Shown here piece by piece: positions 1 to 64,000 of a stretch of 64,000 bases of DNA. Each line of letters begins with the position of its first letter. Position 1 is the stretch's first letter. The notes under the pieces were generated by a model that had not been told where the DNA came from, did not search any database, and was given only the letters and a program-made list of their open reading frames with translations. Source of the stretch: Microgenomates group bacterium (lineage in GTDB: Bacteria; Patescibacteriota; Microgenomatia; Daviesbacterales; UBA10151); contig JBAZXP010000001.1 of assembly GCA_041659805.1 (NCBI GenBank), positions 512,589 through 576,588 of the forward strand, read 5' to 3'. The position numbers and the translations under genes are program-made.

Positions 1-1323
1 AATAATTTTTTTAAAAATAATAAGATTAGTGTTTTTAGTGCTTTATTTTTGGCTATTTCTCCCTGGCATATTTTTTATTCACGGATTGTTTCTGAGTCTC
101 AGGTTGCAATGGTTTTAGCAACACTGGGATTACTTGCGCTGATTAAATTCAAAAACGGAAACATACTTTGGGGATATATATCCGTATTCTCTATGGTTAG
201 TTCGATGTATGCTTATCATTCAGAGCGGTTATTTTTACCTTTGTTTTTTTTAATATGGGCATTCATAAATAAAAGTTGGTTAATAGTTAATAAAAAGAAA
301 GTGGCACTGATGCTTTTGATGGGAGCAATTTTAGCTTCACCACTTCTTATTGATCTTGTTTTTGGTAAAAGTACTATTCGGGCGGGTCAGCAAAGCATAT
401 ATAATGACATCAACTTTTTACGGCAGGTTTTTATTACCCCCGAACCTGTATATACTTATTTTGATCCTTTTTATATTTTATTTAATCAACAGTGGTTATA
501 TGTAATATTCTTTGTGATACGGAAATATCTTACTTTCTTTCAGCCTGATTTTTTATTTTTTAATGCTTTACCGATTCTTTCAACAGGATTATATGGTTTA
601 GGAGTTATGTATATTTTTCAGGCCCCGATTTTTTTGATAGGTTTAATTAAAGCTTTCAGTTTAAAATCGGATAATAAATATCTTCTTCCGATATGGTTTT
701 CCTTTGGTTTGTTACCTGCTGCTATAACACTGGCAGAATATCATACAGTACGCACCATGGTTGTAATTCCTGTTTTAGCTATTGTTTCTGGTGTTGGTTT
801 ATGGGTAGTTTTAAATTGGTTTATGCAAATCAGAAATAAATTTTTAAAGGTTGCAACCGGGTTGGTATTTTTTCTGGTAGTAAGTATTAATCTTTTTCAG
901 GCCTTTTTGATGTTTCATGTACATTTTCCGATTGAGCAATCTGATACTTTTATGGTTGGGAATAAAGAAGTGCTAGCTTGGATTGCAGAGAACAATAATA
1001 ATAAAGAAGAGGTAGTCTTCGATTCCAGGAGATTTTCAAACGGTCAAATTATAGTTAGTGTTCCGTATCTTTACTATTTATTTTATACAAAATATGATCC
1101 CAAGGCATTTCAAACTCTTTTCAATGATCACCCTGATAATCAGTTGAAAATAAATAATTTTACGTTCAGAGATATTGATTGGAGAACTGACCGGGGTCAG
1201 TCTGATATATTGTTTATCGGCAGCCCCTGGACTCTCCCCGAAGAAGATCTCACAGAAGCGACTATCTTAAAGAAAATATATCTACCGAACGGAAATGAGA
1301 CTTTAAGAGTGGTTGCTCCTTAA
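1..1323 (+). CDS. PMT/ArnT-like (GT39/PMT_2 family) polytopic GT-C glycosyltransferase, 5'-partial (runs off window start)
   Basis: Frame 1 is open from nt 1 with no stop before the annotated Met at 49. 'ALFLAISPWH' matches the mid-protein motif of the paralogues at 7137, 8773 and 10405 ('LLAISPWHLHFSRGAWEAN'), so about 130 aa of N-terminus including the loop-1 DE motif lie upstream. Shares the C-terminal 'YLPNGNETL' / 'FYTKYDP' motifs with the paralogues. Confidence 0.7.
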   Translation, partial: NNFFKNNKISVFSALFLAISPWHIFYSRIVSESQVAMVLATLGLLALIKFKNGNILWGYISVFSMVSSMYAYHSERLFLPLFFLIWAFINKSWLIVNKKKVALMLLMGAILASPLLIDLVFGKSTIRAGQQSIYNDINFLRQVFITPEPVYTYFDPFYILFNQQWLYVIFFVIRKYLTFFQPDFLFFNALPILSTGLYGLGVMYIFQAPIFLIGLIKAFSLKSDNKYLLPIWFSFGLLPAAITLAEYHTVRTMVVIPVLAIVSGVGLWVVLNWFMQIRNKFLKVATGLVFFLVVSINLFQAFLMFHVHFPIEQSDTFMVGNKEVLAWIAENNNNKEEVVFDSRRFSNGQIIVSVPYLYYLFYTKYDPKAFQTLFNDHPDNQLKINNFTFRDIDWRTDRGQSDILFIGSPWTLPEEDLTEATILKKIYLPNGNETLRVVAP

Positions 1324-1359
1324 TATTTTACTTACAAATACTCAACTGGTAAGATTAAT

Positions 1360-2259
1360 ATGATGAAAAATAAAATTTCAGTCGTTATAAATACCTTCAA
1401 TGAGGAAGAAAATATTGAAAGAGCCTTAAAGTCAGTTAAATGGGCAGATGAGACGGTTGTTTGCGATATGTTATCAGGTGATAAAACCGCAGAAATTGCC
1501 AAAAAAATGGGGGCCAAAGTAGTTTTGCACAAGCCTCAAAAGTATGTAGAATTAGTCCGTAACTTTAATATATCTCAAGCTTCAAATGATTGGGTGTTAA
1601 TTTTGGATCCTGATGAAGAAATTCCTGAAAGTTTAGCTAAAAAAATACAAGAAGTGACAGAGATGGATGGTGTGACATTCGCAGAGATCCCCCGGAAGAA
1701 TATTATTTTCGGCAAATGGATGGAAAATTCAATGTGGTGGCCTGATTATAATATCAGATTATTTAAAAAGGGTAGTGTGGTATGGAGTGAAGAGATCCAT
1801 AGACCGCCCCAAACAGAAGGTAAAGGCTTTCAGCTTGACTCAACAGAGGATTTGGCAATAATTCATCATCATTATGAGAGTATTTCACAATTTATTACCA
1901 GAATGGACCGTTATACTACCGCACAAGCTGGGGAATTGGCTAAAAGCGGTTATAAATTAAATTGGAAAGACCTAATTGAAAAACCTGTCAGTGAATTTCT
2001 AAACAGATATTTTGCAGGTCGTGGCTATGAGGATGGATTGCATGGATTGGCTTTAGGTTTGCTTCAGGCACTCTCTTTTTTGGTAATGTATCTGAAAGTA
2101 TGGGAAGAAGAAAAGTTTAAAGAGCAAAAACTACAATTTAAAGAAGTGTCTGATGAGGGTAAAAAGATTGGTAAAGAAATTAACTACTGGTTTAAATATG
2201 GTAACCTTTCTAAAAATCCTATTATACGTGCATTTCAAAAAGCTAAAAATAAATTTTAA
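1360..2259 (+). CDS. GT2 glycosyltransferase, WaaE/KdtX-like (LPS-core type)
   Basis: N-terminus 'ISVVINTFNEEENIERALKSVKWADETVVCD..SGDKTAEIAKKMGAKVV' matches the WaaE/KdtX signature (NEE..I..CL.S..WADE..V.DS.S.D.T..IA...GAKV). 'ILDPDEE' acidic DxD-like motif, 'WWPDYNIRLFKKG'. One of four paralogues in the window (1360, 3107, 11991, 60266). Confidence 0.75.
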   Translation: MMKNKISVVINTFNEEENIERALKSVKWADETVVCDMLSGDKTAEIAKKMGAKVVLHKPQKYVELVRNFNISQASNDWVLILDPDEEIPESLAKKIQEVTEMDGVTFAEIPRKNIIFGKWMENSMWWPDYNIRLFKKGSVVWSEEIHRPPQTEGKGFQLDSTEDLAIIHHHYESISQFITRMDRYTTAQAGELAKSGYKLNWKDLIEKPVSEFLNRYFAGRGYEDGLHGLALGLLQALSFLVMYLKVWEEEKFKEQKLQFKEVSDEGKKIGKEINYWFKYGNLSKNPIIRAFQKAKNKF

Positions 2260-3110
2260 TGGTAAAAGTTGCAGTTGTAATTTTAAATTTCAAAGTTAAA
2301 GAAGAAACACTGAAATGTGTGGCTTCTGTTGAAAAATCAGATTATCATGATATAGAAATTATTGTTGTAGATAATAATTCAGGAGATGATATCGAGGACA
2401 GTCTGCCTAAAAACAACAGAACAATTTTTATTCAGAGCGGAGACAATTTGGGATATACCGGCGGGAACAATTTAGGAATTAAAAGAGCGCTAGAAGATAA
2501 AGTAGATTATATTTTTGTATTGAATCCGGATACAGAGGTAACGATAACTGCTATAAGCAGTTTAGTGACTGAATCTGAAAAAGAAAAAATAGGAATAATG
2601 GGTCCTAAAATCCTTTTTGGGGATAGAAAGACGATTTGGTATGCGGGTGGGTTAATGGATTTGGCGAACGTTTTAGGCCAACATAGAGGGGTGGATGAGA
2701 TGGATGCAGGGCAATATGATAAAGTAGAGCAGACTGAATTTGTGACAGGAGGGGCAATGTTTGTAAGTAGTGAGGTTTTTGAGAAGATTGGTTTATTTGA
2801 TGAAAAATATTTTATGTATTTAGAAGATAGTGATTTTTGTTTTAGAGCCCAAAAAATGGGATATAAAATTTTATACAATCCTAAAGCGGTTGTTTATCAT
2901 GAAAATGCAAAATCAGCAGGATTAGGGTCACCTTTACAGGATTATTTTATAACCCGCAACAGAATGTATTTTGCCTCAAAGTTTTTGTCCTTCAGAACAA
3001 GATTTGCTCTCTTCAGGGAAGCTATAAGAAATATCGGAAGTCTAGTCAGAAGACTAGCTTTTTTTGATTTTTTAAGTGGTAATATGGGGAAGGGGAGTTA
3101 TATTCAATGA
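2259..3110 (+). CDS. GT2 glycosyltransferase, WbbL/rhamnosyltransferase-like
   Basis: 'VAVVILNFK..IEIIVVDNNSGDD', 'GYTGGNNLGI', 'DEKYFMYLEDSDFCFRAQKMGYKI' are typical of the non-processive GT2 rhamnosyltransferase-like family. Paralogues at 4984 (N-terminal domain), 17059 and 61231. Confidence 0.75.
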   Translation: MVKVAVVILNFKVKEETLKCVASVEKSDYHDIEIIVVDNNSGDDIEDSLPKNNRTIFIQSGDNLGYTGGNNLGIKRALEDKVDYIFVLNPDTEVTITAISSLVTESEKEKIGIMGPKILFGDRKTIWYAGGLMDLANVLGQHRGVDEMDAGQYDKVEQTEFVTGGAMFVSSEVFEKIGLFDEKYFMYLEDSDFCFRAQKMGYKILYNPKAVVYHENAKSAGLGSPLQDYFITRNRMYFASKFLSFRTRFALFREAIRNIGSLVRRLAFFDFLSGNMGKGSYIQ

Positions 3111-3910
3111 TCTCAATAATTATACTAACAAAAAATGAAGAGAGTATGATTCACGCCTGTTTGGAATCTGTTAAATGGGCTGACGAGGTAATTGTTATAG
3201 ATTCAAACAGTCAGGACAAAACAGCGGAAATTGCAAAAAATTTCGGAGCAAAGGTTTTTGCCCGTGAGTTTGATAATTATGTTAATCAAAAAGGATTTGC
3301 GATGACAAAAGCATCCGGGGATTGGATTTTATATGTTGATGCTGATGAGAGGGTTTTGGAACCTCTAAGACAGGAGGTTTTGGGTTTGATTGCCAAAGAT
3401 CAGATTTCTGCCTATGCTCTTTCCAGAAGGAATATTATTTTCGGAAAAGAGGAAAAGTATGGCCCGTTCTGGCCTGATTGGGTGATAAGGTTGGTAAAAA
3501 AAGATGACTTTGTTAAATGGGTGGGGGAAGTGCATGAGCATATGGAATTTGAAGGAAAATTAGGTTATACAAAAAATTCTTTACTTCATTTAACTCATAG
3601 AAATGTGGAGCAGGTAATTTTAAAAAATTTACAATGGTCAAAAATTGATGCTAAATTAAGAATGGACGCTCATCACCCCAAGATGTCCAGATGGAGATTT
3701 TTACGGATATTATGTTCAGAGCTATTTAATCAGGGAATTATAAGACGCGGATTTTTTAACGGGTCTGTCGGAACAATTGATGCCCTGTTGCAAACATTCA
3801 GTATGTTAACAACATATATCAGACTTTGGGAGATGCAGCAAAGAAAGCCTTTGGATGAAATATATAAAGATTTAGATACTCAGTTAATTAAGGAAAATTT
3901 TAATTTCTAA
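3107..3910 (+). CDS. GT2 glycosyltransferase, WaaE/KdtX-like
   Basis: 'ISIIILTKNEESMIHACLESVKWADEVIVIDSNSQDKTAEIAKNFGAKVF', 'YVDADERV', 'FWPDWVIRLVKK'. Paralogue of 1360. Confidence 0.75.
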   Translation: MISIIILTKNEESMIHACLESVKWADEVIVIDSNSQDKTAEIAKNFGAKVFAREFDNYVNQKGFAMTKASGDWILYVDADERVLEPLRQEVLGLIAKDQISAYALSRRNIIFGKEEKYGPFWPDWVIRLVKKDDFVKWVGEVHEHMEFEGKLGYTKNSLLHLTHRNVEQVILKNLQWSKIDAKLRMDAHHPKMSRWRFLRILCSELFNQGIIRRGFFNGSVGTIDALLQTFSMLTTYIRLWEMQQRKPLDEIYKDLDTQLIKENFNF

Positions 3911-4978
3911 ATGAGAGTCGGAATTTACACTCCATATCTGGACAGTTTTGGCGGTGGGGAGCGGTATATGTTAACTATCGCTGAAATTTTATCATCAAAT
4001 AACCGGGTTGATCTGTTGCTTGACCGGCATCTGCAAGTTTTGATTACCGAAGAAGTTAAAAAAAATCTTGGTGAAAGATTCAACTTAGATCTTTCTAAAG
4101 TAAATTTAATTGAAGCTCCTATAGGAGCTAATTCAGGATTTTGGAGAAAATTATTTTTTTTAAGAAAATACGATCTGCTGTTTTATTTAACAGATGGAAG
4201 TATTTTTTATTCAACCGCTAAAAAAAATATTTTACACTTTCAGGTTCCCTTTAAAAATACTGTAACCAATTCTTTTTGGGGAAGGATAAAACTTTTAAGC
4301 TGGAATCTGGCGATTTGTAATTCGAAGTTCACACAAAGCATTATCGAAAAAGAATGGCCGATTAAATCTCAGGTTCTTTATCCTCCGGTTGAAGTAGAAG
4401 TAATTGAACCGTTAGCTAAGAAAAAACAGATATTATCCGTTGGCAGGTTTGCCAGTTTTTCTAAATCAAAAAAGCACGAGGAGATGATAAAGGCTTTCGG
4501 AGATTTATTCCATTCCGGAAAAATTGATGGATGGGGTTTGCATTTGGCAGGATCGATCGAAGGAAGTGAAGACTATATCGCGGAACTAAAGAATTTGGCA
4601 GAAGGGTTGCCGGTAACCTTTTATCCCAACATTCCATTTAAAGATTTAAAGCGATTATTCGGTGAATCCAGTATTTATTGGCATGCAGCAGGGTATGGTG
4701 AAGAAGATCCTACCCAAATGGAACATTTTGGTATAGCGACAGTAGAAGCGATGGCCGGAGGATGCGTTCCGATAGTTATAAATCAAGGAGGACAAACAGA
4801 AATTGTTGAAAATGAAACTTCCGGATATCTCTGGAATCAAGTCAATGAATTAAAAGTTCTTACTGTTAAAGTAATTATGGACCATTCTTTATGGCAAAAA
4901 TTATCCGCTAATGCCATAAAAAGAAGTAAAAACTTTTCTAAAAAGACTTTTGAAGAAGACATTCTAAAAATCGTTTAA
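3911..4978 (+). CDS. GT4 (GT-B fold) glycosyltransferase
   Basis: C-terminal 'EHFGIATVEAMAGGCVPIVINQGGQTEIV' is the GT4 E-x7-E donor-binding motif; the N-terminal acceptor domain starts 'MRVGIYTPYLDSFGGGERY'. Confidence 0.8.
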   Translation: MRVGIYTPYLDSFGGGERYMLTIAEILSSNNRVDLLLDRHLQVLITEEVKKNLGERFNLDLSKVNLIEAPIGANSGFWRKLFFLRKYDLLFYLTDGSIFYSTAKKNILHFQVPFKNTVTNSFWGRIKLLSWNLAICNSKFTQSIIEKEWPIKSQVLYPPVEVEVIEPLAKKKQILSVGRFASFSKSKKHEEMIKAFGDLFHSGKIDGWGLHLAGSIEGSEDYIAELKNLAEGLPVTFYPNIPFKDLKRLFGESSIYWHAAGYGEEDPTQMEHFGIATVEAMAGGCVPIVINQGGQTEIVENETSGYLWNQVNELKVLTVKVIMDHSLWQKLSANAIKRSKNFSKKTFEEDILKIV

Positions 4979-4983
4979 ATCAT

Positions 4984-15664: not shown

Positions 15665-16005
15665 TAATTGCACTACAACTAACAGCAATAGTCTTTGCGT
15701 TAATAATGATTTATTTTGCTTATTTGCATTTTTCCCGCGGAGAATTAAACGGCATTGAGATTTTGTCTTGGGTGGTTATATGGATGGTGACAATAGTAAT
15801 AGTTGTCTTCCCGGAATTACTGGCTGCTTTTGCAAAAACTTTTGCAATTTCAAGGGTGTTTGATTTGATGGTTATAGGAGGGTTTATTATGGTTATCTCT
15901 GTTGTTTATATTGCGTATGTTAGGACTAAGAGATTAGAAAAAAAGATTGAAGATTACGTGAGAGAGGAAAGCTTAAATAAAATAAGGAAAAATAGAAAAA
16001 AATAG
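15661..16005 (+). CDS. Small 3-TM membrane protein, DUF2304-like (GT2-associated)
   Basis: 114 aa with three predicted TM helices and a basic tail. Resembles what I recall of DUF2304 proteins that pair with DPM1-like GT2 genes. ATGA overlap with the upstream GT2. Confidence 0.45.
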   Translation: MIIALQLTAIVFALIMIYFAYLHFSRGELNGIEILSWVVIWMVTIVIVVFPELLAAFAKTFAISRVFDLMVIGGFIMVISVVYIAYVRTKRLEKKIEDYVREESLNKIRKNRKK

Positions 16006-58090: not shown

Positions 58091-60187
58091 TTATTTAAGT
58101 TTTTTTTGCATTGAATATATTTTTTGTGCGGTGAATAAAACCAGGCTGAGATTTAATAGAAATGCAGCCAAAAATATCTGTTTAGGAAAATCCCAATAAT
58201 ATATAGCTTTAACCCACCAGAAATCCGGTACTCGTTCAAAGATTTGAGTATGAATTTGCCATGTTTTCCAAGGGTCTTGATTTGTTCCTCCATAATTTTG
58301 ATATGTTGTACCAGTCATTTTGGGTCCCAGGGGTGATATATAGGGGATATCAATGCTTTCCATATTTATAGGAATATTGTTAATGCTTGAATTAATTAAT
58401 CCGATTATTTGGGTGTGGTTTATAACTACATTGGGATCATCAAATTGAATCTTAATTATCAATTGGTTATTTGTGGATTTAAGATATTCTTTTTTAATTG
58501 GTATTTTAATCAATTTTCTTTCCCTTAGGGACAAAACTTCCTTTTCCAATGATATTGGGTGATTATTCAGCATAAATTGAAGATTAGCTGACGAACTCGA
58601 ATTGCCTATTGGATGATTAATTATTCCAAAGATTATTTCTTTGATAGGTTGTTTATCATTATTGTCAAAAGAAATGTGTCCTGTTTCATCTATGACTCGC
58701 CATCTCTCCGGGCCAACATTAAAAGGAAAATCTACGCCATCATAGAATTTTACGTTATAAATTCCATGCTCCAATGTTTTTGGGAATAATTGAATTGTTT
58801 TAATAAAGCTTTTCGACATTGTATAGATTGGACTGAAACGAGGTAAAAAATTACTATATATAGAAACTGGATATTCTATTCCATTAATGAAGAAACGGCT
58901 TTCTAGGTTGTGGTATTTAATTTGATAGGGCATAAAAATACCTAGTAACTCAATGTAAAGACCGAGAATCGCAAGAGGCAGGAAGATAAATATTTTTTGC
59001 ATTTTTGATAAAGCAACAAAAATATTTCCAACAACCAGCATTCCGAAAGGAATAAGTGGTGTTAAATAACGCGGTCCCCAGCTTGATTCTCCATGCCATA
59101 ATTCAGCAACAACCTGGTCGGATTCTCTAAAGGCATATTGGGTAGAGAAAAAAAATATATATATAATAGATATCATTAGAAATACTATTAATTCAGATAC
59201 TATTTTATTGCGGATTTTGTGCCAGAAGAATAAGATAATGAGTATCAAAGGAGAATATAAGAAGAAGCTTCTTCCTGGGCTAAGCAATTGTCCGTATAAC
59301 CCTTCAATAATAACTGGTATTTGAATATGAGATAAGGTGTTAGCAGCAACACTGGAAAAATATTGAGGAGAAGATGAGCTAATACTACCTTGAGCACGAA
59401 TATTTTCAAACCAAACGTAAATTATCATTAGAGGTATAAGTCCGAGTAAAAAGACATAAGCGTCTTTAAGGATTGATATAAATGAATTTCGGTTTAATTG
59501 AGGTTTTGTAAGGAGCAAATAATAAAGTATGAGTACAGGGAAAGGTAATAAGAAAGTTGGATTATAGGCAATCAGTACTATACCGTAAGAAATGGCTGAA
59601 AAAAATAATAGAAATTTTTTATGTGATAAAGAATATTTTTTAACAAGAAAAAATGCTAACACTAGAAAGCTGGTAAACACCATATGTGCAACACTGTGTT
59701 TGCTGTAAACTAAAAGATTGGTTGCAAATAATGAAACCATACTCATTAACAAAGCTTGTTTTAGTCTAATTTTTAGAGCTAGAAAATAAAGGAACAGTAT
59801 AAGACCCAAACTTGCAGCAAAAAAAGAATTCGTAAAACTAGCTAGTAAAAAAATAAGCCAATCTGATTCTAATGGAAAATGGACTGGTGGAGAAACGTTA
59901 TAATATTTGTATACCATATCTGTAATTGCAACAGCTGGTAAGTATGCTAGTGAAAATCCTAAACCAGTTGGACTGTATGTCTTGCCATCCTTGCCAATGT
60001 ATGTGCTCATATGTATATTTTTATTCTCATTAAATTCATATAAGGGTCCTGTGGGCTCACCTTTGTAATAGATATTACGAGCTACGGCAAGATACTGTAA
60101 CCCATCTTGTGAATCTATCACGCCTGATGATAGAAAAATGAATGTGGAATAAAGAAATAAGAAATAATAAATTATCAGTCTTTTCAT
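58091..60187 (-). CDS. ArnT/PMT_2-like GT-C polytopic glycosyltransferase with large C-terminal extracytoplasmic domain and terminal TM anchor
   Basis: Loop-1 'DSQDGLQYLAVARNIYYKGEPTGP' resembles the ArnT 'DETRYAEISREM..G' motif. About 12 TM, then a ~300 aa soluble region, then a final TM ('IFLAAFLLNLSLVLF'). Confidence 0.5.
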   Translation of the reverse strand: MKRLIIYYFLFLYSTFIFLSSGVIDSQDGLQYLAVARNIYYKGEPTGPLYEFNENKNIHMSTYIGKDGKTYSPTGLGFSLAYLPAVAITDMVYKYYNVSPPVHFPLESDWLIFLLASFTNSFFAASLGLILFLYFLALKIRLKQALLMSMVSLFATNLLVYSKHSVAHMVFTSFLVLAFFLVKKYSLSHKKFLLFFSAISYGIVLIAYNPTFLLPFPVLILYYLLLTKPQLNRNSFISILKDAYVFLLGLIPLMIIYVWFENIRAQGSISSSSPQYFSSVAANTLSHIQIPVIIEGLYGQLLSPGRSFFLYSPLILIILFFWHKIRNKIVSELIVFLMISIIYIFFFSTQYAFRESDQVVAELWHGESSWGPRYLTPLIPFGMLVVGNIFVALSKMQKIFIFLPLAILGLYIELLGIFMPYQIKYHNLESRFFINGIEYPVSIYSNFLPRFSPIYTMSKSFIKTIQLFPKTLEHGIYNVKFYDGVDFPFNVGPERWRVIDETGHISFDNNDKQPIKEIIFGIINHPIGNSSSSANLQFMLNNHPISLEKEVLSLRERKLIKIPIKKEYLKSTNNQLIIKIQFDDPNVVINHTQIIGLINSSINNIPINMESIDIPYISPLGPKMTGTTYQNYGGTNQDPWKTWQIHTQIFERVPDFWWVKAIYYWDFPKQIFLAAFLLNLSLVLFTAQKIYSMQKKLK

Positions 60188-60265: not shown

Positions 60266-61234
60266 ATGAATATAAAAATCGGTTTAAGTTTAATAATCCA
60301 TACCAAAAACGAAGAGGCTAATATCGCGGAATGTATAAGGTCTGCTCAAAGTATTGCTTCTGAGATTATTATTGCCGATATGCAAAGTTCGGATGAAACT
60401 ATTGCAATAGCAAAAAAAATGGGAGCAAAAGTTTTTTCAGTGCCTGATTATAATTTTGCTGATCCTGCAAGAAATTTTGCCATAAGTAAGGCTACCAACA
60501 AATGGATCTTTATATTAGATGCTGACGAGCGAATATCTGAGATATTATGCAAAAAAATTAATGAAATTATTGTCGCTGATAATTTTGACGTAGTGGCTTT
60601 TCCGAGAAAGAATATTCATTTTGAAAAATGGATTAAACACACTGCCTGGTGGCCTGATTATCAGCATAGATTATTCAAAAAGGGATTTGTTAATTGCCCG
60701 GATATAATTCATAAACGATATAAAATTAAAGGTAGGATACTTACACTACCTCCCAAAGAAGAAAACTCGATCCTCCATTTTCAAACCAAAACAAGCAAGG
60801 AGTTGATATTTAAAATAGATCGATATACTTCACTTGAGAAATATTTTGAGAAAGAAAAAAAACTTTCTTTTAATGATGTCATAAACTACATAGATCAAGA
60901 GTTCCAGTGGAGGTTCTTTGAAGAAAAAGGATATCTGGATGGAATGAGAGGTTATATTTTAAGTAAATTCATGGAATATTATCGCTTTTTAGTTTTTGTG
61001 AAGTATTGGGAAACTCACAAATATCCTGAATTGTGTAGCCCTATTCAATTAAAAAAATATGTTGAACAGAATAAGCATTTGTCTTTAGGAATAACCAAAT
61101 TGAATGTTTCTGAGAAGCAACATTTTGATAAAATTATCAATTCTAAATTTTACAAAGCATGGCGTGTATATAGTGATATGAAAGATAAGTTTTTTGAAAT
61201 TATAAAGTTAGGAAAAGGAGCGATTGCTTCATGA
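60266..61234 (+). CDS. GT2 glycosyltransferase, WaaE/KdtX-like
   Basis: 'LSLIIHTKNEEANIAECIRSAQSIASEIIIADMQSSDETIAIAKKMGAKVF', 'ILDADERI', 'WWPDYQHRLFKKG'. Closest paralogue of 1360. Confidence 0.75.
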   Translation: MNIKIGLSLIIHTKNEEANIAECIRSAQSIASEIIIADMQSSDETIAIAKKMGAKVFSVPDYNFADPARNFAISKATNKWIFILDADERISEILCKKINEIIVADNFDVVAFPRKNIHFEKWIKHTAWWPDYQHRLFKKGFVNCPDIIHKRYKIKGRILTLPPKEENSILHFQTKTSKELIFKIDRYTSLEKYFEKEKKLSFNDVINYIDQEFQWRFFEEKGYLDGMRGYILSKFMEYYRFLVFVKYWETHKYPELCSPIQLKKYVEQNKHLSLGITKLNVSEKQHFDKIINSKFYKAWRVYSDMKDKFFEIIKLGKGAIAS

Positions 61235-62682
61235 GAGAAACATATCCTAATTGTTCGGTTGTTGTTCTCAATTATTTTGGAGAGAGAGTAATCAAAAATA
61301 CGATTAACTCGCTTTTGAATCTGGATTATCCGAAAGAAAAACTTGAGATCCTTATTGTTGATAATAACTCCCAAGATAAAAGTCGCGAAATAATTATGAA
61401 TTATGCGGAACAAGAAAAAAATATCAAATACATATTCCTTAACAAGAATAAAGGTTTTGCGGGCGGCAACAATGAGGGGATAAAAGTAGCGAAAGGTGAG
61501 TACGTAACATTATTGAATAATGATTGTATCGTAGAAAAGGATTGGTTAACGGAGTTAGTAAAAACAGCACGGAAGGATCCAAAAATTTTCGCAGTTTCTT
61601 CTAAGATTAAGCTTTATCCAAAATATTACAATCTAAAATTTAATTATACTAGTGGTTTATTTTTAGTGAATGCTTTTTTAAAGGACGGGTATCTTGCTAA
61701 GCTGGAAAAACCCAGAAACGTAAACCTCGAAGTAATACTTGAAGATGGGTATTCTGTACTGGAAATTCCATATGTTGCCAAGGACGGATTATTTTCAGTA
61801 GAAATGGTCTTTGAACTCGATAAACAGGATTCTATAAAATCATACGAACAATTAGTTACGATACTAAACGATGAAGGGGTTGAAGGACATCCTAAGATAA
61901 CTGTTCATAAACAACGACTTGTTTTTACGGTTAAGTTTGATGCTGAAAAATTTGATAAAAATAGTGTTTTTGACAAAATACAGAATGCAGGAATTGTAGT
62001 TTTTCAGAATGGTGCGGGACGTGATATCGGAGCACAAATCATAGTCCAGAGACAATTTTACGAATGTGATTATGGGCAATATGCGGAAGAACAGGAAGTA
62101 TATGCTGCATGTGGGGCGGCAGTGATGTATAACAAAAAGATTTTAGGTAAAATAGGTTTTTTGGAGGATTTATTTTTTATGTATTATGAAGATGTAGAAA
62201 TTTCTGAAAGAGCACGTCTTAGAGGATATAAAATATTCTATTGTCCAAACGCTGAAGTTCGTCATCTCCATGCTTTTTCTAGCAAAGAATGGTCTAATTT
62301 TTTCATTTACCAGGCTGAAAAAGGTAGGTTGCTACACATCTTTTTTAGCTTTCCGTTGCGTGTATTTATTAAGGAATTTTTTATATTGATAATAAAAATT
62401 GCAGAGGTTGGAGTTAGGATTATGAAAAACCTTTCTGATCGAAAAAGGGTTATAAAATTTATTCGGGGGGTTGTTGGATATGTTTTTAGAGAAGCTGAGA
62501 AAGAGGGTGCCGGCAAGACTGATTTTGGAAAAGTAATGCAATATATAAAGATAATATTGTATTTCTCGGGAAATATGCCCATGCTTATTCTAAAAAGATA
62601 CATAAAGCATAGACATATATCTAGTAATGCTATTATTAATAATTATCAAGATATCCTAAAAGGAAAATGGTATTTTAACTAA
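61231..62682 (+). CDS. GT2 glycosyltransferase, WbbL/rhamnosyltransferase-like with ~120 aa internal insertion
   Basis: 'CSVVVLNYFGERVI', 'ILIVDNNSQDKS', 'GFAGGNNEGI', 'EDLFFMYYEDVEISERARLRGYKI'. The insertion lies between the DxD region and the C-terminal half (residues ~120-250). Confidence 0.7.
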   Translation: MRETYPNCSVVVLNYFGERVIKNTINSLLNLDYPKEKLEILIVDNNSQDKSREIIMNYAEQEKNIKYIFLNKNKGFAGGNNEGIKVAKGEYVTLLNNDCIVEKDWLTELVKTARKDPKIFAVSSKIKLYPKYYNLKFNYTSGLFLVNAFLKDGYLAKLEKPRNVNLEVILEDGYSVLEIPYVAKDGLFSVEMVFELDKQDSIKSYEQLVTILNDEGVEGHPKITVHKQRLVFTVKFDAEKFDKNSVFDKIQNAGIVVFQNGAGRDIGAQIIVQRQFYECDYGQYAEEQEVYAACGAAVMYNKKILGKIGFLEDLFFMYYEDVEISERARLRGYKIFYCPNAEVRHLHAFSSKEWSNFFIYQAEKGRLLHIFFSFPLRVFIKEFFILIIKIAEVGVRIMKNLSDRKRVIKFIRGVVGYVFREAEKEGAGKTDFGKVMQYIKIILYFSGNMPMLILKRYIKHRHISSNAIINNYQDILKGKWYFN

Positions 62683-64000
62683 TGAAAAAAAATGCTGTAG
62701 TTTATGATAAATGGTTAAGGTCTTTGGGAGGGGGGGAAGTTGTTGCATGCAATATTGCAAAAATATTAGCTGATAACGGTTACGAGGTAACTTTTATTGC
62801 CGGGAAAAAGGTAGATAAAGAGATCATAAAGAATAAACTCAGTATAGATCTATCAAAAGTTTCTATGGTAGAGGTTTGGACAGATGAAGCAAAGGTGAAG
62901 CAACTTTCTAAAGATAAAGACCTATTCATTAATACTTCCTTTCTTGATTATACATATGGGATTGCTAAAAAGAATATTTACTACACTCATTTTCCGAAAG
63001 AGCCTTATAACACAATCGGAGAAATGTTGTTTACTAAATTTTTATTTCCCCTCGTAGTAAATTTTATAAATCCCTTTGAAATGTTTAGTGATTTGGAGAT
63101 GACAACAGTTATTAAAACAGTAGAGGATAGTGAGCCGGCATACCTACTTAAAGAAAACAATAAGGTTGCTATTTCATATTTACAAAAAAATAAGATTCAT
63201 GTTATCGAATTTTCATTATTTCTTAGTTCATTTTCACAATCCTTAATGAGAGATATAAAGATATATTTTGAAGAAGCAAATATTCGTTCGCGGGAGGTGT
63301 TTATTGATCATAATCATAATCAAATTAACTTTCGGTTTAAGATAAAAGCGTTAAGTTCAACTGCGTATTTAGGAATCGAAATATTAAAGTCTCAGCTTGC
63401 GGTAAAAGATGATCAAGTTTATTTACTTTATCCAAAAATAAAAATTAGAAATGTTTATGAATCTGTTTTTAAAGTAATTTATAATAAAATAAATAACAAG
63501 CTAAGGTCAGGGGTTTTTTCTAACCCGTTAGAAAGGTTAGGCAGTTATCAACTAATTTTGGCAAACTCATCTTTTACACAAAAATGGATAAAAAATTATT
63601 GGAAGCGAGAATCCACCATACTTTATCCTCCCGTGGAATTATTATTTCATAAATATAATTTAGACAATCAAAAAAAGAAAAAATGGATTTGTTCGGTCGG
63701 AAGATTTTTTATGTTAGGCCACGGGAAGAAACAAGAAATTTTGATTAAAGCATTTAAAAAATTCTATGATTTGGGTAACAATGATTGGGAGTTACATTTA
63801 TGTGGAGGAATAAGTACAGAAGAGAGTAGTCTTGATTTCTTAGAAAGGTTAAAGTCTGAAGTAAACGGTTATCCAGTCTATTTCCACTTGAATGTTTCTA
63901 GAAGCGAAATAGAGAGAATATTATTAAATTCGAAAATTTATTGGCACGCAACAGGATTTGGAGAGAATGAGGACACGAGTCCCATAAAATTTGAACATTT
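62682..64000 (+). CDS. GT4 (GT-B fold) glycosyltransferase, 3'-partial (runs off window end)
   Basis: ATG at 62682 overlaps the upstream TAA (TAATG). 'AVVYDKWLRSLGGGEVVACNIAKILADNGYEV' is a GT4 N-terminal domain. 'RFFMLGHGKKQEILIKAF' and 'YWHATGFGENED' approach the E-x7-E region. No stop before nt 64000. Confidence 0.65.
   Translation, partial: MKKNAVVYDKWLRSLGGGEVVACNIAKILADNGYEVTFIAGKKVDKEIIKNKLSIDLSKVSMVEVWTDEAKVKQLSKDKDLFINTSFLDYTYGIAKKNIYYTHFPKEPYNTIGEMLFTKFLFPLVVNFINPFEMFSDLEMTTVIKTVEDSEPAYLLKENNKVAISYLQKNKIHVIEFSLFLSSFSQSLMRDIKIYFEEANIRSREVFIDHNHNQINFRFKIKALSSTAYLGIEILKSQLAVKDDQVYLLYPKIKIRNVYESVFKVIYNKINNKLRSGVFSNPLERLGSYQLILANSSFTQKWIKNYWKRESTILYPPVELLFHKYNLDNQKKKKWICSVGRFFMLGHGKKQEILIKAFKKFYDLGNNDWELHLCGGISTEESSLDFLERLKSEVNGYPVYFHLNVSRSEIERILLNSKIYWHATGFGENEDTSPIKFEH

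Follow-up and report, generated by a model that had tools for sequence, protein, structure and literature searches.

Comparison with described glycosylation systems

Three-component glycosylation, in which a synthase, a flippase and a GT-C enzyme act together, is a common and well-documented scheme (PMC8035078; PMC11127046; PMC5836110; PMC12041528), and the BFO_1060 family of transferases includes characterised members from Tannerella forsythia (PMC5420450). How does a 64-kb stretch of DNA (the window, throughout this text) from the small, about 1.1-Mb Daviesbacteria-like metagenome-assembled genome (MAG) of a Microgenomates/CPR bacterium compare with these systems? Its nonulosonic acid (NulO) module with a BFO_1060-type transferase agrees with the T. 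forsythia O-glycan system (PMC5420450). Its GT-C enzymes, which are PMT_2/ArnT-like, PIG-V-like or members of a Pfam-less family, differ from the mycobacterial GT-C families. The actinobacterial LM/LAM parallel drawn in the original prediction thus holds at the level of logic and not at that of the GT-C families. The accompanying statement that the architecture is ‘not a described system’ was too strong, because three-component glycosylation is already well described and the NulO module matches T. forsythia; the island is built from known glycan machinery.

Extent, integrity and conservation of the island

The window makes up ~5.7% of its 1,130,263-bp contig and holds 57 non-overlapping ORFs, with 98.8% of the sequence coding and a widest intergenic gap of 142 nt. 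A Pfam scan of all 57 placed glycan-type domains in 50, not a non-glycan majority, bearing out the notion of an uninterrupted glycan island. The tally comprises GT2 domains in 10 genes and GT4 in five; four PMT/PMT_2 matches (plus one at relaxed threshold) and one PIG-V-like match; six SAM methyltransferases and four B12-binding radical SAM enzymes; and ~17 sugar or sugar-nucleotide enzymes alongside Wzx, Wzm, Wzt, EamA and DUF2304. Five of the seven Pfam-less ORFs (g1, g19, g20, g37, g38, g44 and g54) were assigned by other means, namely g1 and, by structure or profile comparison (used also for the C-terminal domain of g6), g37, g38, g44 and g54. That every gene is glycan-related, as originally proposed, is therefore true of most ORFs but not of g19 and g20, which have no detectable homology, nor clearly of g31/g32, g34, g35 and g36, which belong to general carbohydrate-metabolism families. 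The expected lack of housekeeping genes, tRNAs and mobile elements was confirmed for the 64 kb: Pfam matched no transposase, integrase, ribosomal, tRNA-synthetase or other housekeeping family in the 57 ORFs, ARAGORN found no tRNA gene and Rfam no RNA family. Long repeats are absent from the window, the only repeats being conserved GT2 motifs among paralogues, and GC content is even (0.29–0.37). Neither end is a cluster boundary, also as predicted, both edges interrupting glycosyltransferase genes (g1 at the start, g57 at the end).

Could the window be a chimeric assembly of several loci? This is unlikely, because the same proteins occur with identical gene spacing in two separate NCBI accession series (g8 and g44 each have a Microgenomates MAG counterpart at 100% identity, the accession numbers lying exactly 36 apart in both series), and because three independent relatives reproduce the gene order over most module junctions. 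The Daviesbacteria assembly GCA_028687915.1 keeps the gene order between 459,678 and 526,935, without g19-g20, g28-g37, g39 and g41; a closer relative (85%) retains g40-g57 and the g30-g32 block; and a third has g2 and g4-g12 in common, carries another PMT_2 gene at the g1 position and then diverges. One relative's island extends over 67 kb or more, and no boundary was seen within that span. The outer parts of the island are thus conserved among relatives and the middle (g28-g39, g41) and g19-g20 are variable, which is the pattern expected for a surface-antigen locus under diversifying selection.

Outward-facing GT-C enzymes and polyprenyl-phosphate sugar synthases

The large GT-C set that had been predicted is present, with at least eight domains (g1, g6C, g7, g8, g9, g12, g37 and g54):

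g1, 1..1323, +, GT-C, PMT_2 paralogue lacking its N-terminus at the window edge (weak PMT_2 match, E 2e-3, relaxed threshold; ~7 TM segments)
g6, 4984..7140, +, GT2 domain (aa 1-250; PF00535, E 2e-24) fused to a GT-C PMT_2-like membrane domain (aa ~250-718)
g7, 7137..8750, +, GT-C, PMT/PMT_2 family, loop 1 motif NWDE (PF02366, E 3e-11)
g8, 8773..10401, +, GT-C, PMT_2 family, loop 1 motif NADE (PF13231, E 2.5e-10)
g9, 10405..11994, +, GT-C, PMT_2 family, loop 1 motif NWDE (PF13231, E 8e-13)
g12, 13869..15008, +, GT-C, PIG-V-like, Mannosyl_trans2 (PF04188, E 1.8e-6, exceeding the gathering score; ~10 TM segments)
g37, 37420..39216, -, GT-C-fold membrane glycosyltransferase of a Pfam-less family (AF2 model, Foldseek)
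g54, 58091..60187, -, divergent PMT_2-like GT-C with a large C-terminal extracytoplasmic domain (homologs, hhalign)

By BLASTP, g1 is related to g8 (E 2e-35) and g7 (E 6e-20). Against the profile of the g8 family, the C-terminal domain of g6 scores 96.7% in hhalign (E 3.8e-10), and it has an ADEA motif after its first TM; the GT2 and GT-C halves of g6 are two separate genes in relatives. At 100% identity, g8 is MFA5932965.1, named ‘glycosyltransferase family 39 protein [Microgenomates group bacterium]’ at NCBI, and it matches ArnT 5EZM in a profile search (E 1e-3). Several homologs of g54 (50-58%) carry PF02366/PF13231, one of them bearing the UniRef name ‘Glycosyltransferase R...’, and g54 itself aligns with the g8 family (hhalign 79%, E 1.7e-5). 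Acidic DE/DD motifs immediately follow TM1 in g6C, g7, g8, g9, g37 and g54. The g37 family (1,442 representative homologs) has no Pfam match for g37 and an invariant WDDW after TM1; the best 11 Foldseek matches of the g37 AF2 model (pLDDT 90) in the PDB are all GT-C enzymes (STT3, DPY19, ArnT, Pmt1/2).

The polyprenyl-phosphate-monosaccharide synthases that had been proposed to feed these enzymes were likewise recovered:

g13, 14996..15664, +, polyprenyl-phosphate sugar synthase, DPMS/PpgS/AglJ-like GT2, catalytic domain only (NCBIfam, PDB)
g14, 15661..16005, +, DUF2304 small 3-TM protein (PF10066, E 1e-16)
g30, 30803..31765, -, GtrB/ArnC/PgfS-type polyprenyl-phosphate glycosyltransferase with two C-terminal TM helices (PDB, NCBIfam)

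For g13, the PpgS (E 3e-33) and AglJ (E 4e-28) matches in NCBIfam fall under cutoff, and the PDB match is DPMS 5MLZ (E 4e-10); g14, its presumed membrane partner, stays paired with it in relative locus L003. Along its entire length the g30 product aligns with the solved structures of GtrB (5EKP, E 5e-77) and ArnC (E 8e-40); it also matches PgfS (E 6e-72), and its TM segments lie at 238 and 267. A survey of g37-family genes covered 49 metagenome loci whose flanking sequence totalled 3 kb or more. Of these, 27 carried a GtrB/DPMS-like synthase and 35 a DegT aminotransferase, which directly adjoined the g37-family gene in about 20 cases; this frequent company supports a handover from synthase to GT-C.

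Sugar-nucleotide enzymes and the nonulosonic acid branch

By homology, a legionaminic-acid-type pathway appears complete in the window, with its own transferase (g38):

g38, 39262..40587, +, nonulosonic-acid (Leg/Pse) transferase, BFO_1060 family (NF046086, 356.7 bits, cutoff 200)
g42, 43752..44477, +, CMP-nonulosonate synthetase, cytidylyltransferase (PF02348, E 4e-22; PseF TIGR03584, E 2e-45, under cutoff)
g45, 47324..48373, +, NeuB/LegI-type nonulosonate synthase (TIGR03569, 421.7 bits, cutoff 399.65)
g46, 48421..49569, +, NeuC/LegG-type hydrolysing 2-epimerase (TIGR03568, 397 bits, cutoff 235.9)
g47, 49569..51095, +, hexapeptide N-acetyltransferase fused to DegT/LegC/PseC-type aminotransferase (PF00132 + PF01041, E 2e-120; PseC E 1e-98 and LegC E 2.5e-85 in NCBIfam; fusion kept in relatives)
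g48, 51092..52087, +, UDP-GlcNAc 4,6-dehydratase, PseB/PglF/FnlA-like (PF02719, E 1e-103; TIGR03589, 299 bits, under cutoff)

The other enzymes of this group are:

g15, 16025..17062, +, SDR sugar epimerase/dehydratase, HpnA-like (PF01370, E 2e-40; TIGR03466, E 1e-44, under cutoff)
g17, 18102..18998, +, RmlD-like NDP-4-keto-sugar reductase (PF04321, E 2e-45; TIGR01214, E 8e-44, under cutoff)
g22, 22636..23490, -, short NDP-sugar dehydrogenase-like protein (TIGR03026, E 5e-12, partial match; ortholog 72% over the 174 aa covered by a relative's locus, where the called gene is 286 aa)
g23, 23512..24603, +, non-hydrolysing UDP-GlcNAc 2-epimerase, WecB (TIGR00236, 346 bits, cutoff 210)
g31, 31750..32676, -, transketolase C-terminal subunit (PF02779 + PF02780)
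g32, 32673..33539, -, transketolase N-terminal (ThDP) subunit (PF00456, E 9e-42)
g33, 33549..34523, -, NDP-sugar 4,6-dehydratase/epimerase, SDR (PF01370, E 1e-47; TIGR01181, E 1e-43, under cutoff)
g34, 34666..35439, -, FabG-like short-chain dehydrogenase (PF13561, E 9e-58)
g35, 35443..36453, -, aldose 1-epimerase family (PF01263, E 7e-32)
g36, 36455..37381, -, inositol-monophosphatase-family (IMPase) sugar phosphatase (PF00459, E 6e-37)

The transketolase/IMPase/aldose-epimerase block could represent ordinary pentose-phosphate or sugar metabolism merely located in the island. A glycan role for g31/g32, g34, g35 and g36 is suggested by gene context alone. The g31 ortholog (83%) in locus L005 adjoins a g30 ortholog.

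Cytoplasmic glycosyltransferases and modifying enzymes

g2, 1360..2259, +, GT2 (PF00535, E 5e-14; ortholog, 74%, in Daviesbacteria locus L008)
g3, 2259..3110, +, GT2 (PF00535, E 6e-15; ortholog, 72%, in L003)
g4, 3107..3910, +, GT2 (PF00535, E 9e-19)
g5, 3911..4978, +, GT4, GT-B (PF00534, E 1.5e-18)
g10, 11991..12857, +, GT2 (PF00535, E 8e-20)
g11, 12854..13891, +, GT4 (PF00534, E 1.6e-28)
g16, 17059..18099, +, GT2 (PF00535, E 6e-29)
g18, 18995..20179, +, GT4 (PF00534, E 5e-34)
g24, 24610..25776, +, GT4 (PF00534, E 9e-22)
g55, 60266..61234, +, GT2 (PF00535, E 2e-18)
g56, 61231..62682, +, GT2, 483 aa (PF00535, E 3e-31)
g57, 62685..64000, +, GT4 lacking its C-terminus at the window edge (PF00534, E 6.5e-7; orthologs in relatives 522-523 aa)
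g21, 21946..22632, +, FkbM-family methyltransferase (PF05050, E 5.5e-17)
g26, 26944..27843, +, FkbM-family methyltransferase (PF05050, E 1.3e-24)
g27, 27840..28547, +, class I SAM methyltransferase (PF08241, E 2e-13)
g29, 30163..30798, -, class I SAM methyltransferase (PF13847, E 5e-13)
g40, 42089..42883, +, class I SAM methyltransferase (PF08241, E 5e-15)
g53, 57107..58090, +, Methyltransf_24 class I methyltransferase (PF13578, E 4e-14)
g28, 28559..30142, -, B12-binding radical SAM enzyme (PF04055 + PF02310)
g39, 40592..42001, -, B12-binding radical SAM enzyme (PF04055 + PF02310)
g43, 44470..46086, -, B12-binding radical SAM enzyme (PF04055 + PF02310)
g50, 53784..55466, +, B12-binding radical SAM enzyme (PF04055, E 5e-24, + PF02310)
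g44, 46125..47291, -, NodB/CE4-fold deacetylase-like enzyme with C-terminal beta-sandwich (AF2 model, Foldseek; no Pfam match)
g25, 25778..26947, +, alpha/alpha-toroid protein, candidate C5-epimerase, lyase or GH-like (weak Pec_lyase, C5-epim_C and GH127 matches; ortholog bears Ulvan_lyase_N)

The AF2 model of g44 (pLDDT 95) retrieved 3qbu, 5z34 and 3s6o with Foldseek (E 8e-5 to 4e-4, probability 1.0); in other phyla its homologs frequently occur as fusions with SAM methyltransferases, and orthologs of g43 (84-92%) adjoin g44 in every case.

Exporters and missing components

The two export routes of the original prediction are there, as Wzx (g49) and as Wzm/Wzt (g52/g51); they are listed here with the EamA transporter g41 and the unassigned membrane proteins g19 and g20:

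g41, 42886..43749, +, EamA/DMT 10-TM transporter, candidate flippase (PF00892, two stretches; ortholog, 88%, at the equivalent position in L005)
g49, 52111..53682, -, Wzx-type (MOP) flippase (PF01943, E 4e-23; PF13440)
g51, 55474..56232, -, Wzt/TagH-type ABC ATPase, 252 aa, without carbohydrate-binding extension (PF00005; TagH E 3e-59, galactan Wzt E 3e-54)
g52, 56235..57020, -, Wzm/TagG-type ABC-2 permease (PF01061, E 4e-18)
g19, 20179..20586, +, small single-TM protein (no Pfam match even at E 10)
g20, 20583..21944, +, polytopic membrane protein, ~10-12 TM (no Pfam or NCBIfam match)

Neither g19 nor g20 has a counterpart in L003, and gene context alone suggests that they take part in the glycan island; g20 is a candidate polymerase/ligase or GT-C, and hhalign comparison with both GT-C profiles was negative. 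Cytoplasmic assembly of a lipid-linked oligosaccharide, also part of the original prediction, was not supported in full, as the enzyme that defines its first step is missing here: neither the 57 ORFs nor the flanking sequence of the relatives gave a Bac_transf or MraY/WecA-type priming transferase match. Nor did the window, or ~47 kb of relatives' sequence past its equivalents, reveal a Wzy_C ligase/polymerase, an STT3/PglB oligosaccharyltransferase, a chain-length regulator, a GtrA-type flippase or an acceptor protein. Because priming enzyme, ligase, oligosaccharyltransferase and acceptor were not detected, we infer the exported lipid-linked product and its acceptors in their entirety.

A proposed composite cell-envelope glycan supercluster

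We favour, with moderate confidence, the reading that the window spans the centre of a composite cell-envelope glycan supercluster in a monoderm, small-genome CPR bacterium, with several pathways side by side instead of one assembly line. The supercluster would cover at least 64 kb and probably more than 75 kb; its division into separate pathways is our judgement from the two exporters, the strand switches and the modular variation. Cytoplasmic enzymes would supply unusual activated sugars: by homology, UDP-ManNAc from g23 and a legionaminic-acid-type nonulosonic acid from UDP-GlcNAc via g48, g47, g46, g45 and g42, and perhaps deoxy or otherwise modified sugars from g15, g17, g33-g36 and the transketolase g31/32. 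Soluble GT2/GT4 enzymes and g38 would then assemble lipid-carried oligo- or polysaccharides on the inner side of the membrane, the priming enzyme necessarily being encoded outside the window, and judging from family roles the products may leave via the Wzx flippase g49 or Wzm/Wzt (g52/g51). In parallel, g13 (with DUF2304 g14) and GtrB-type g30 are predicted to charge polyprenyl phosphate with single sugars, which would be flipped (candidates, EamA g41 and DUF2304 g14) and moved at the outer membrane face by the at least eight GT-C domains onto surface proteins and/or wall polymers; what is established for these domains is their fold, family and acidic loop-1 motifs. The six SAM methyltransferases, the four B12-radical-SAM enzymes and the NodB-fold g44 may modify the sugars. 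We found no CPR/Microgenomates genome in the searchable literature with an island as large and as dense in GT-C enzymes; what is unusual here is the scale and the density of outward-facing GT-C enzymes in a CPR genome.

Gene content and organization of the island

The 57 genes (g1 to g57 in order), the number also arrived at in the original prediction, cover 98.8% of the 64,000 bases according to a mechanical ORF listing and an inspection of both ends. Intergenic gaps are at most 142 nt, the starts and stops of many ORFs overlap, and GC is even and low (0.29-0.37 across the window). When all 57 ORFs were scanned against Pfam, and selected ORFs against NCBIfam, no transposase, integrase, ribosomal or other housekeeping family was matched among the 57 in Pfam; no tRNA or tmRNA was found in the window, Rfam returned no family at the gathering threshold, and repeats are confined to short conserved motifs common to paralogous GT2 genes, with no long repeats. 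The earlier description of the stretch as free of housekeeping genes, tRNAs and mobile elements is thus borne out and, since its Pfam content is of the glycan type and transposase and housekeeping matches are lacking, the glycan island can be regarded as real and far beyond chance. It holds 23 glycosyltransferase genes.

Table. Pfam families among the 57 ORFs
GT2 domain genes (n = 10): g2, g3, g4, g6, g10, g13, g16, g30, g55, g56
GT4 genes (n = 5): g5, g11, g18, g24, g57
PMT/PMT_2 matches (n = 3): g7-g9
PIG-V-type GT-C (n = 1): g12
SAM methyltransferases (n = 6): g21 and g26 (FkbM), g27, g29, g40, g53
B12-binding radical SAM enzymes (n = 4): g28, g39, g43, g50
Sugar and sugar-nucleotide enzymes: about 17
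Transporters (n = 4): Wzx g49, Wzm g52, Wzt g51, EamA g41
DUF2304 small membrane protein: g14

Seven of the 57 ORFs are Pfam-less, and a relaxed Pfam scan of all seven yielded only a weak PMT_2 match for g1; sequence searches of the PDB with g37, g54, g44 and g38 returned nothing significant. The genes fall into five modules, in which GT-C stands for the membrane glycosyltransferase fold acting outside and g6C for the C-terminal GT-C domain of g6:

1-16,005, module (a): GT-C battery (g1, g6C, g7, g8, g9, g12) among soluble GT2 and GT4 genes, ending with g13-g14
16,025-28,547, module (b): sugar modification and transfer, with SDR epimerase/reductase genes g15 and g17, a short dehydrogenase-like g22, WecB g23 (above its equivalog cutoff), the alpha/alpha-toroid g25, GT2 and GT4 genes and three methyltransferases
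28,559-39,216, minus strand, module (c): variable, with a radical SAM enzyme, a methyltransferase, g30, g31-g36 (split transketolase g31/g32, two SDRs, aldose epimerase, IMPase-family phosphatase) and the predicted GT-C g37
39,262-53,682, module (d): complete legionaminic-acid-type pathway, g38, two radical SAM enzymes, a methyltransferase, g44, EamA g41 and Wzx g49
53,784-64,000, module (e): a radical SAM enzyme, Wzm/Wzt, a methyltransferase, GT-C g54 and three glycosyltransferases

GC skew is +0.1 to +0.33 over plus-strand genes and merely -0.05 to -0.09 over minus-strand genes, and its cumulative value climbs almost monotonically along the window (1-64000), a pattern that suggests a replication-strand bias on top of the coding-strand bias; in another Microgenomates genome, a disparity in strand composition is described in the literature (PMC7143001).

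Relatives, extent and contiguity

A Microgenomates group bacterium MAG, whose longest contig measures 1,130,263 bp, encodes proteins 100% identical to g8, g44 and g54. In NCBI, the accessions of g8 and g44 (MFA5932965 and MFA5933001 in one series, MFA6453433 and MFA6453469 in another) lie 36 apart in each case, and because this spacing equals 44 minus 8, the NCBI gene calls agree with ours and neither record has a break in the stretch. At 62-85% identity, the next-best homologs belong to Candidatus Daviesbacteria and to metagenome contigs, and the boundaries of the island were judged from such relatives. In a Daviesbacteria genome (GCA_028687915.1; hereafter relative A), four overlapping or abutting loci span 459,678-526,935 of the 1,096,538 bp contig JAQTZF010000001.1, minus about 0.9 kb (491,309-492,208). 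Its gene order is that of the window for g2-g18, g21-g27, g40 and g42-g57 at protein identities of 47-88%, and it has no g19-g20, g28-g37, g39 or g41. Upstream of its g2 equivalent lie three additional PMT_2 genes and a pair of large polytopic Pfam-less proteins, a YfhO-type GT-C sits between the equivalents of g2 and g3, and the g57 equivalent is followed by a DUF6311 membrane protein, methyltransferases, two GT2 genes, one of them with a C-terminal TM domain, and another polytopic protein. The glycan genes of relative A thus occupy at least 67 kb, and neither side shows a boundary. A closer relative (85% identity; locus L005 on a 63 kb Logan contig) keeps g40-g57 with the g30-g32 block adjoining, and its island has a weak TagF-like (Glyphos_transf) gene. 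A JGI contig has g2 and g4-g12 in common with the window, carries another PMT_2 gene in place of g1 and, beyond g4-g12, diverges to a Wzx/GT2/GT4 set.

It follows from these conserved, co-linear relatives that the window is not a chimera, that, as originally proposed, neither of its edges is a boundary, and that the island is modular, its outer parts conserved and its middle variable, as expected for surface-antigen loci. The window corresponds to about 5.7% of a CPR (Patescibacteria) genome of about 1.1 Mb, and the true island probably exceeds 75 kb. Its flanks in relatives (L008 1-11752, in relative A; L006 1-5749; L007 1-5968; L001 1-2487) contain YfhO, three PMT_2 genes, DUF6311 and Pfam-less polytopic proteins of 458-1148 aa, of which some have a soluble domain at the C-terminus. 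Each of these genomes, about 1.1 Mb in size, probably encodes well over a dozen GT-C-like proteins.

Could the window be an artefact of assembly or binning, i.e. a chimera of glycan loci from several organisms or a non-CPR locus in a CPR bin? Glycan loci are repetitive in domain content, often vary between strains and can mislead assemblers. Against this stand the uniform GC and the lack of long repeats, the occurrence of the same proteins on a 1.13 Mb contig in two NCBI accession series that agree in their 36-gene spacing, the co-linear islands on the 1.10 Mb Daviesbacteria contig and on contigs of 52-63 kb from other samples, which cover most module junctions, and the closest homologs of g8, g44 and g54, which all come from Microgenomates, Daviesbacteria or Patescibacteria. 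We therefore regard an artefact as highly improbable. The affiliation of g8, g44 and g54, which are identical or closest to Microgenomates/Daviesbacteria proteins, also led us to reject an archaeal or methanogen source and an rfb locus of the Leptospira kind, two readings that the low GC, the NulO genes and the B12-radical-SAM enzymes had suggested.

GT-C enzymes and their lipid-phosphate sugar synthases

At least eight GT-C domains are encoded in the 64 kb. Both g7 and g8 match PF02366 in Pfam (E 3e-11 and E 5e-9, respectively), and g1, which matches g8 in BLASTP (E 2e-35) and PMT_2 weakly, is their truncated paralogue, as it is of g9. On direct reading, the PMT/PMT_2 genes g7-g9 have NWDE/NADE motifs in loop 1, a DE pair lies just past the first TM helix in g6C, g7, g8 and g9, and at the same position g37 has WDDW and g54 has DSQDG. 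No MIR domain was matched by Pfam in g1 or g6-g9, and the sole profile match of g8, which NCBI names GT39, to a solved structure is the lipid-modifying enzyme ArnT (E 1e-3). The C-terminal 468 aa of g6 align with the g8-family profile (96.7% probability, E 3.8e-10), the ADEA loop-1 and SPW..FSR motifs both falling within the aligned stretch, and g6 is therefore assigned as a fusion:

4984-7140, plus strand: g6, in-frame GT2-GT-C fusion

In relative A (L003 4607-8303), the two halves of g6 (69% identical each) are encoded by separate genes on either side of a PMT_2 gene of 498 aa, and thus the fusion looks like the product of a deletion. As for g54, its homologs at 50-72% identity are named in Microgenomates-type sources only, some of them with precomputed PMT/PMT_2 domains, and its family profile aligns with that of the g8 family at 79% probability (E 1.7e-5).

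What would supply these enzymes with sugars? Polyprenyl-phosphate glycosyltransferases of the GtrB/ArnC/DPMS type, a feature of three-component glycosylation systems, are present as g30 and g13. The former aligns over its full length (aa 9-313) with the solved Synechocystis GtrB 5EKP (E 5e-77) and also matches ArnC (E 8e-40); two TM helices lie at its C-terminus. The latter, a GT2 of 222 aa, has its best NCBIfam matches in PpgS (E 3e-33) and archaeal AglJ, both under cutoff (115 bits against 370 for the model named for PpgS, NF058614), and its best solved match is the Pyrococcus dolichol-phosphate-mannose synthase 5MLZ (E 4e-10). It is followed by the DUF2304 gene g14, with the GT-C gene g12 immediately upstream; in Mycobacterium tuberculosis the small protein Rv3632, the equivalent of g14, stimulates PpgS. 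A further feature of three-component systems, a GT-C with an acidic first-loop motif, is found in g7-g9 (Pfam), g37 (structural model) and g6C and g54 (profiles). A flippase of the GtrA family had no Pfam match among the 57 ORFs, and EamA g41 and DUF2304 g14 are candidate sugar flippases by membrane topology and position.

A widespread family of predicted GT-Cs represented by g37

37420-39216, minus strand: g37, predicted GT-C of a family that has no Pfam model

The g37 family has 1,442 representative homologs at E <= 0.001, and a scan of 56 members gave essentially no Pfam matches, one member matching GtrII. The structural model of g37 (pLDDT 90) predicts a GT-C fold: its top eleven PDB matches are all GT-C enzymes (STT3 of OST-A and OST-B, DPY19, ArnT, Pmt1/2), with AftB, GPI-MT-I and ALG6 among the lower-ranked ones, and since the TM-scores are low (0.26-0.39), this is a fold-level call. 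An hhalign comparison with the PMT_2 family was negative; g37 is therefore no divergent PMT_2 member, and its assignment to the GT-Cs is based on the predicted fold. On direct reading, g37 has no WWDYG-type motif, and no STT3 match occurs in Pfam among the 57 ORFs.

A profile of the family retrieved 75 metagenome loci (L009-L083) from many lineages, with GC from 0.21 to 0.66; neighbours were counted in 49 of them, those whose flanks add up to at least 3 kb.

Table. Genes near g37 homologs in 49 metagenome loci
GtrB-like (g30-type) synthase: 23 of 49
DPMS-like (g13-type) synthase: 4 of 49 (GtrB-like and DPMS-like together, 27 of 49)
DegT-type aminotransferase, any distance: 35 of 49
DegT-type aminotransferase within 3 kb: 26 of 49
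NeuB-type synthase: 18 of 49

The aminotransferase directly adjoins the g37 homolog in about 20 of the 49. This recurrent triad of g37-type enzyme, synthase and aminotransferase is the ArnB/ArnC/ArnT pattern; the neighbourhoods support the view that GT-Cs of this type would use an amino sugar carried on polyprenyl phosphate as their donor, and the family looks like an undescribed Arn-like system of amino-sugar transfer. It could instead be a Pgl-like oligosaccharyltransferase accompanied by bacillosamine genes, with which the STT3 fold matches and the bacillosamine-type neighbours would agree, but the frequent GtrB-like neighbours make this less likely, as does the lack of a PglC-type motif in the 75 loci, although this motif test is a weak one.

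The nonulosonic acid branch and its candidate modifying enzymes

Module (d) covers all six activities of legionaminic acid (Leg) synthesis by the UDP-linked route (LegB/PglF, LegC, LegH/PglD, LegG/NeuC, LegI/NeuB, LegF), a complete set made up of a dehydratase (g48), the two-domain acetyltransferase-aminotransferase g47, a NeuC-type epimerase (g46), a NeuB-type synthase (g45) and a cytidylyltransferase (g42). The scores of g45 with TIGR03569 (421.7 bits, cutoff 399.65) and of g46 with TIGR03568 (397.2 bits, cutoff 235.9) lie above threshold. The Pfam matches of the others are PF02719 for g48 (E 1e-103), PF01041 (E 2e-120) plus Hexapep for g47 and PF02348 for g42, and because these three fall below the specific equivalog cutoffs, the exact nonulosonic acid (NulO) is uncertain: the product would be of the legionaminic-acid type, Leg and its epimers not being separable by sequence. 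In g47, two of the activities reside in one 508 aa protein, and the fusion is kept in relatives at 83-85% identity:

49569-51095, plus strand: g47, hexapeptide N-acetyltransferase joined to a LegC/PseC-type aminotransferase

A dedicated NulO transferase is also present, g38 scoring 356.7 bits with the 'BFO_1060 family glycosyltransferase' model NF046086 (cutoff 200). The proteins BFO_1060, Tanf_01245 and TFUB4_00887 of Tannerella forsythia are, as knock-out and mass spectrometry have shown, the transferases of the terminal pseudaminic (Pse) or legionaminic acid derivative of the S-layer O-glycan, a cap that is placed on a ManNAcA residue (PMC5420450).

Genes for two B12-radical-SAM enzymes, a NodB-fold enzyme, a methyltransferase and the EamA transporter are interleaved with the Leg pathway, an arrangement that suggests a further modified NulO. 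The NodB-fold member is g44:

46125-47291, minus strand: g44, member of a Pfam-less family with a predicted NodB fold

More than 600 homologs of g44 carry no annotation; those in Bacteroidetes, Omnitrophica and Proteobacteria are often fusions with SAM methyltransferases, as proteins of about 650 aa. Its AlphaFold model (73 sequences; pLDDT 95) resembles the NodB/CE4 deacetylases 3qbu, 5z34 and 3s6o (E 8e-5 to 4e-4, probability 1.0), with a beta-sandwich at the C-terminus. In relatives, g44 always adjoins the B12-radical-SAM gene g43 and the NulO genes; together with the fold and the fusions, this suggests that it may take part in de-N-acetylation and re-modification of a NulO. The enzyme g43 is one of four paralogs in a CPR host, a group generally described as minimal in biosynthesis, and their substrates may be sugars that undergo C-methylation:

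28559-30142, 40592-42001, 44470-46086 and 53784-55466: four paralogous B12-binding radical SAM enzymes

Export, first and last steps, and unassigned genes

The two export routes named in the original prediction are both in place: a Wzx (MOP) flippase, g49 (PF01943, E 4e-23, and PF13440), and an export pair of the ABC-2 permease g52 (Wzm; PF01061) and the ATPase g51 (Wzt; PF00005). With 252 aa, g51 lacks a carbohydrate-binding extension; its strongest resemblance is to TagH (E 3e-59), followed by galactan Wzt (E 3e-54), both matches being under the equivalog cutoffs. Neither the 57 ORFs nor the relatives' loci gave a PF02397 or PF00953 match for a priming phosphoglycosyltransferase, and a scan of the same sequences for the priming-transferase motif, a weak test, was negative too. 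Matches to a Wzy_C ligase/polymerase, Wzz, STT3/PglB or GtrA were likewise lacking among the 57 ORFs and in the relatives' loci, as were S-layer, pilin or other candidate acceptor genes in the window and the relatives' loci. With neither priming, ligase/polymerase and oligosaccharyltransferase genes nor acceptors, the first and last steps of every pathway are inferred ones, which is where all mechanistic models are weakest, the original one included: of the cytoplasmic lipid-linked-oligosaccharide assembly that it proposed, the priming step has no matching enzyme family in these sequences.

Two sets of genes stand somewhat apart:

20179-21944, plus strand: g19 (135 aa, single TM) and g20 (453 aa, about 10-12 TM)
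31750-37381, minus strand: g31-g36, split transketolase, FabG-like SDR, aldose 1-epimerase and IMPase-family phosphatase, between the GtrB-type synthase g30 and the GT-C g37

No homology of g19 or g20 was found among the families tested (relaxed Pfam for both, Pfam/NCBIfam for g20), and a comparison of g20 with the GT-C profiles was negative. The pair is absent from the co-linear relative A, where the equivalents of g18 and g21 adjoin, and it looks like a lineage-specific insertion; possibly it is a polymerase with its co-polymerase. The transketolase pair of the second block also adjoins the g30 ortholog in L005 and in the metagenome locus L071. Does this block make an unusual (branched or higher-carbon) sugar? 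It could, or it could belong to ordinary pentose-phosphate or sugar metabolism; searching the literature for split transketolases within polysaccharide clusters turned up no relevant paper.

One pathway or several?

The reading that we favour, with some reserve, is that the window is a composite envelope-glycan supercluster, in which several side-by-side pathways share sugar-supply genes. It is based on the presence of two different export systems, on several strand switches, on the independent gain and loss of modules among relatives, and on the 23 glycosyltransferase genes, which go far beyond the normal need of one glycan. The island could alternatively be one assembly line for general protein O-glycosylation of the T. 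forsythia type, with an S-layer protein, pilin or adhesin as the target, in which a lipid-linked oligosaccharide with a modified legionaminic cap and methylated sugars would be exported to protein and the GT-Cs would extend it outside in sequence. Membership of g38 in the family of the T. forsythia Pse/Leg transferases speaks for such a line, and so do WecB g23 with the adjoining dehydrogenase-like g22, the many methyltransferases and Wzx, the contiguity of the full set and its co-linearity in relatives, and the match of g7-g9 to the protein O-mannosyltransferase Pfam family, with its DE motif. However, Wzx and the ABC-2 exporter argue for at least two products, modules come and go independently, the window has no PglL/Wzy_C or PglB/STT3 Pfam match and no acceptor gene was found in it, and the 23 glycosyltransferase genes would far exceed the need of any single bacterial protein glycan known. 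A single line is, in our judgement, unlikely.

A division of labour of another kind would make the GT-C battery a set of PMT-like protein O-glycosyltransferases with various targets, lying beside an unrelated locus for a wall polymer of the teichoic-acid type. The PMT/PMT_2 Pfam matches, the NCBI name GT39, the similarity of Wzt to the TagH teichoic-acid exporters above all others and the weak TagF-like gene in the L005 island are in keeping with this, as is the finding that streptococcal systems of GtrB and GT-C O-glycosylate Ser/Thr-rich regions of membrane proteins (PMC12041528). On the other hand, there is no MIR domain, the only solved-structure profile match is to ArnT, which modifies lipid (E 1e-3), and the GT-Cs lie scattered among soluble GT2 and GT4 genes in a conserved order that suggests a joint function; the acceptor of a GT-C, moreover, is not inferable from sequence. 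We consider this division quite improbable, more so than the single line. A more far-reaching scheme is speculative as a whole and, in our judgement, rather unlikely. Daviesbacteria-like CPR would build much of their coat outside the membrane by a dozen or more GT-Cs acting in sequence; these enzymes (at least eight domains in the window, plus 5 to 9 GT-Cs or candidates in the flanks of relatives) would use lipid-phosphate sugars in a process resembling synthesis in the ER lumen or of mycobacterial LAM, and the product would be capped with a legionaminic acid modified by radical SAM enzymes and methylation. Within this scheme, g37 would represent an undescribed GT-C family that works, Arn-like, with a GtrB-type synthase and a DegT aminotransferase in many phyla.

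Comparison with known systems

Three-component glycosylation is widespread, known examples being Gtr, Arn (ArnC/ArnE-F/ArnT), CsbB/GtcA/YfhO, GacI/GacL and PgfS/PgfM (PMC8035078, PMC11127046, PMC5836110, PMC12041528). The window resembles these systems in having a GT2 with C-terminal TM helices to load polyprenyl phosphate (g30, with the DPMS-like g13) and GT-Cs with an acidic loop-1 motif for transfer outside, and YfhO itself occurs in the islands of relatives. By contrast, the known systems pair one synthase with one GT-C for a side-branch, whereas here at least eight GT-C domains stand against two recognisable synthases, and EamA and DUF2304 are the sole candidates for the place of a GtrA/GtcA-type flippase. 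With the T. forsythia locus (PMC5420450), the window shares the BFO_1060-family g38, the Leg-type pathway, methyltransferases, Wzx and nearby ManNAc genes. It differs in that T. forsythia is a Gram-negative member of the Bacteroidota whose locus is much smaller and lacks a GT-C battery, and the host of the window is a monoderm CPR; the O-oligosaccharyltransferase and S-layer targets of T. forsythia are known or sought elsewhere. From known Leg biosynthesis, the window differs in the fusion of acetyltransferase and aminotransferase in g47 and in the other genes interleaved with the pathway.

The mycobacterial galactosamine system consists of PpgS (Rv3631), Rv3632 and Rv3779. The best match of g13 to PpgS, the DUF2304 gene next to it, the GT-C g12 upstream and the many GT-Cs that would be fed by polyprenyl phosphate recall this system and LM/LAM synthesis, but the window GT-Cs are PMT_2- and PIG-V-like rather than Emb/Aft/Pim, and genes for decaprenyl-phospho-arabinose are absent. 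No arabinosyltransferase, PimE or UbiA-type Pfam match occurs in the 57 ORFs, AftB appearing only as a distant fold match of g37, so the likeness to actinobacterial LM/LAM drawn in the original prediction holds for the shared logic and fails for family membership. Among very large loci of the O-antigen/rfb type, the Leptospira rfb locus is about 100 kb long. NulO genes are present in Leptospira (PMC3438082), and such loci resemble the window in that tens of glycan genes, NulO genes among them, lie contiguously, with exporters of the Wzx and ABC kinds and a large number of methyltransferases; in contrast, they serve a diderm LPS O-antigen with priming transferase/Wzy/ligase logic and few GT-Cs, whereas the host here is a monoderm with a 1.1 Mb genome, of which the island therefore makes up about 6%. 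The earlier claim that the combined architecture is not a described system was accordingly too broad: the logic of synthase plus GT-C is not new, the exporters are standard, and the NulO branch with its transferase has a characterised counterpart.

Biological significance

CPR bacteria (Patescibacteria) are thought to live attached to hosts with very little biosynthetic capacity (PMC11665869). The literature searched, a PNAS perspective on Patescibacteria included, gave no direct description of glycan islands, NulO pathways or GT-C enzymes in CPR, none of an island of such size and GT-C density in a CPR genome, and no paper on glycosylation in Microgenomates; the complete genome paper on another Microgenomates gives 29 glycosyltransferases as a count only, and a preprint on pili calls glycosylation 'unexplored' in Saccharibacteria, the best-studied CPR class (PMC11623550). 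Three side findings seem worth attention in their own right: the GT-C family with Arn-like neighbourhoods, the NodB-fold family tied to NulO genes and the four B12-radical-SAM enzymes. The g37 GT-C and g44 NodB-fold families, which are widespread outside CPR, could both be characterised in tractable organisms.

That about 6% of a genome of about 1.1 Mb is given over to one contiguous glycan island, with 23 glycosyltransferase genes, a pathway for a sialic-acid-like sugar and four cobalamin-dependent radical SAM enzymes, implies a central place for surface glycans in the CPR lifestyle. The genes of the island are candidates for host recognition, for variation of phage receptors and for antibody- or lectin-based capture of uncultured cells, and if the scheme of a coat assembled outside the membrane is true, this coat would be the variable determinant of host attachment or phage evasion.
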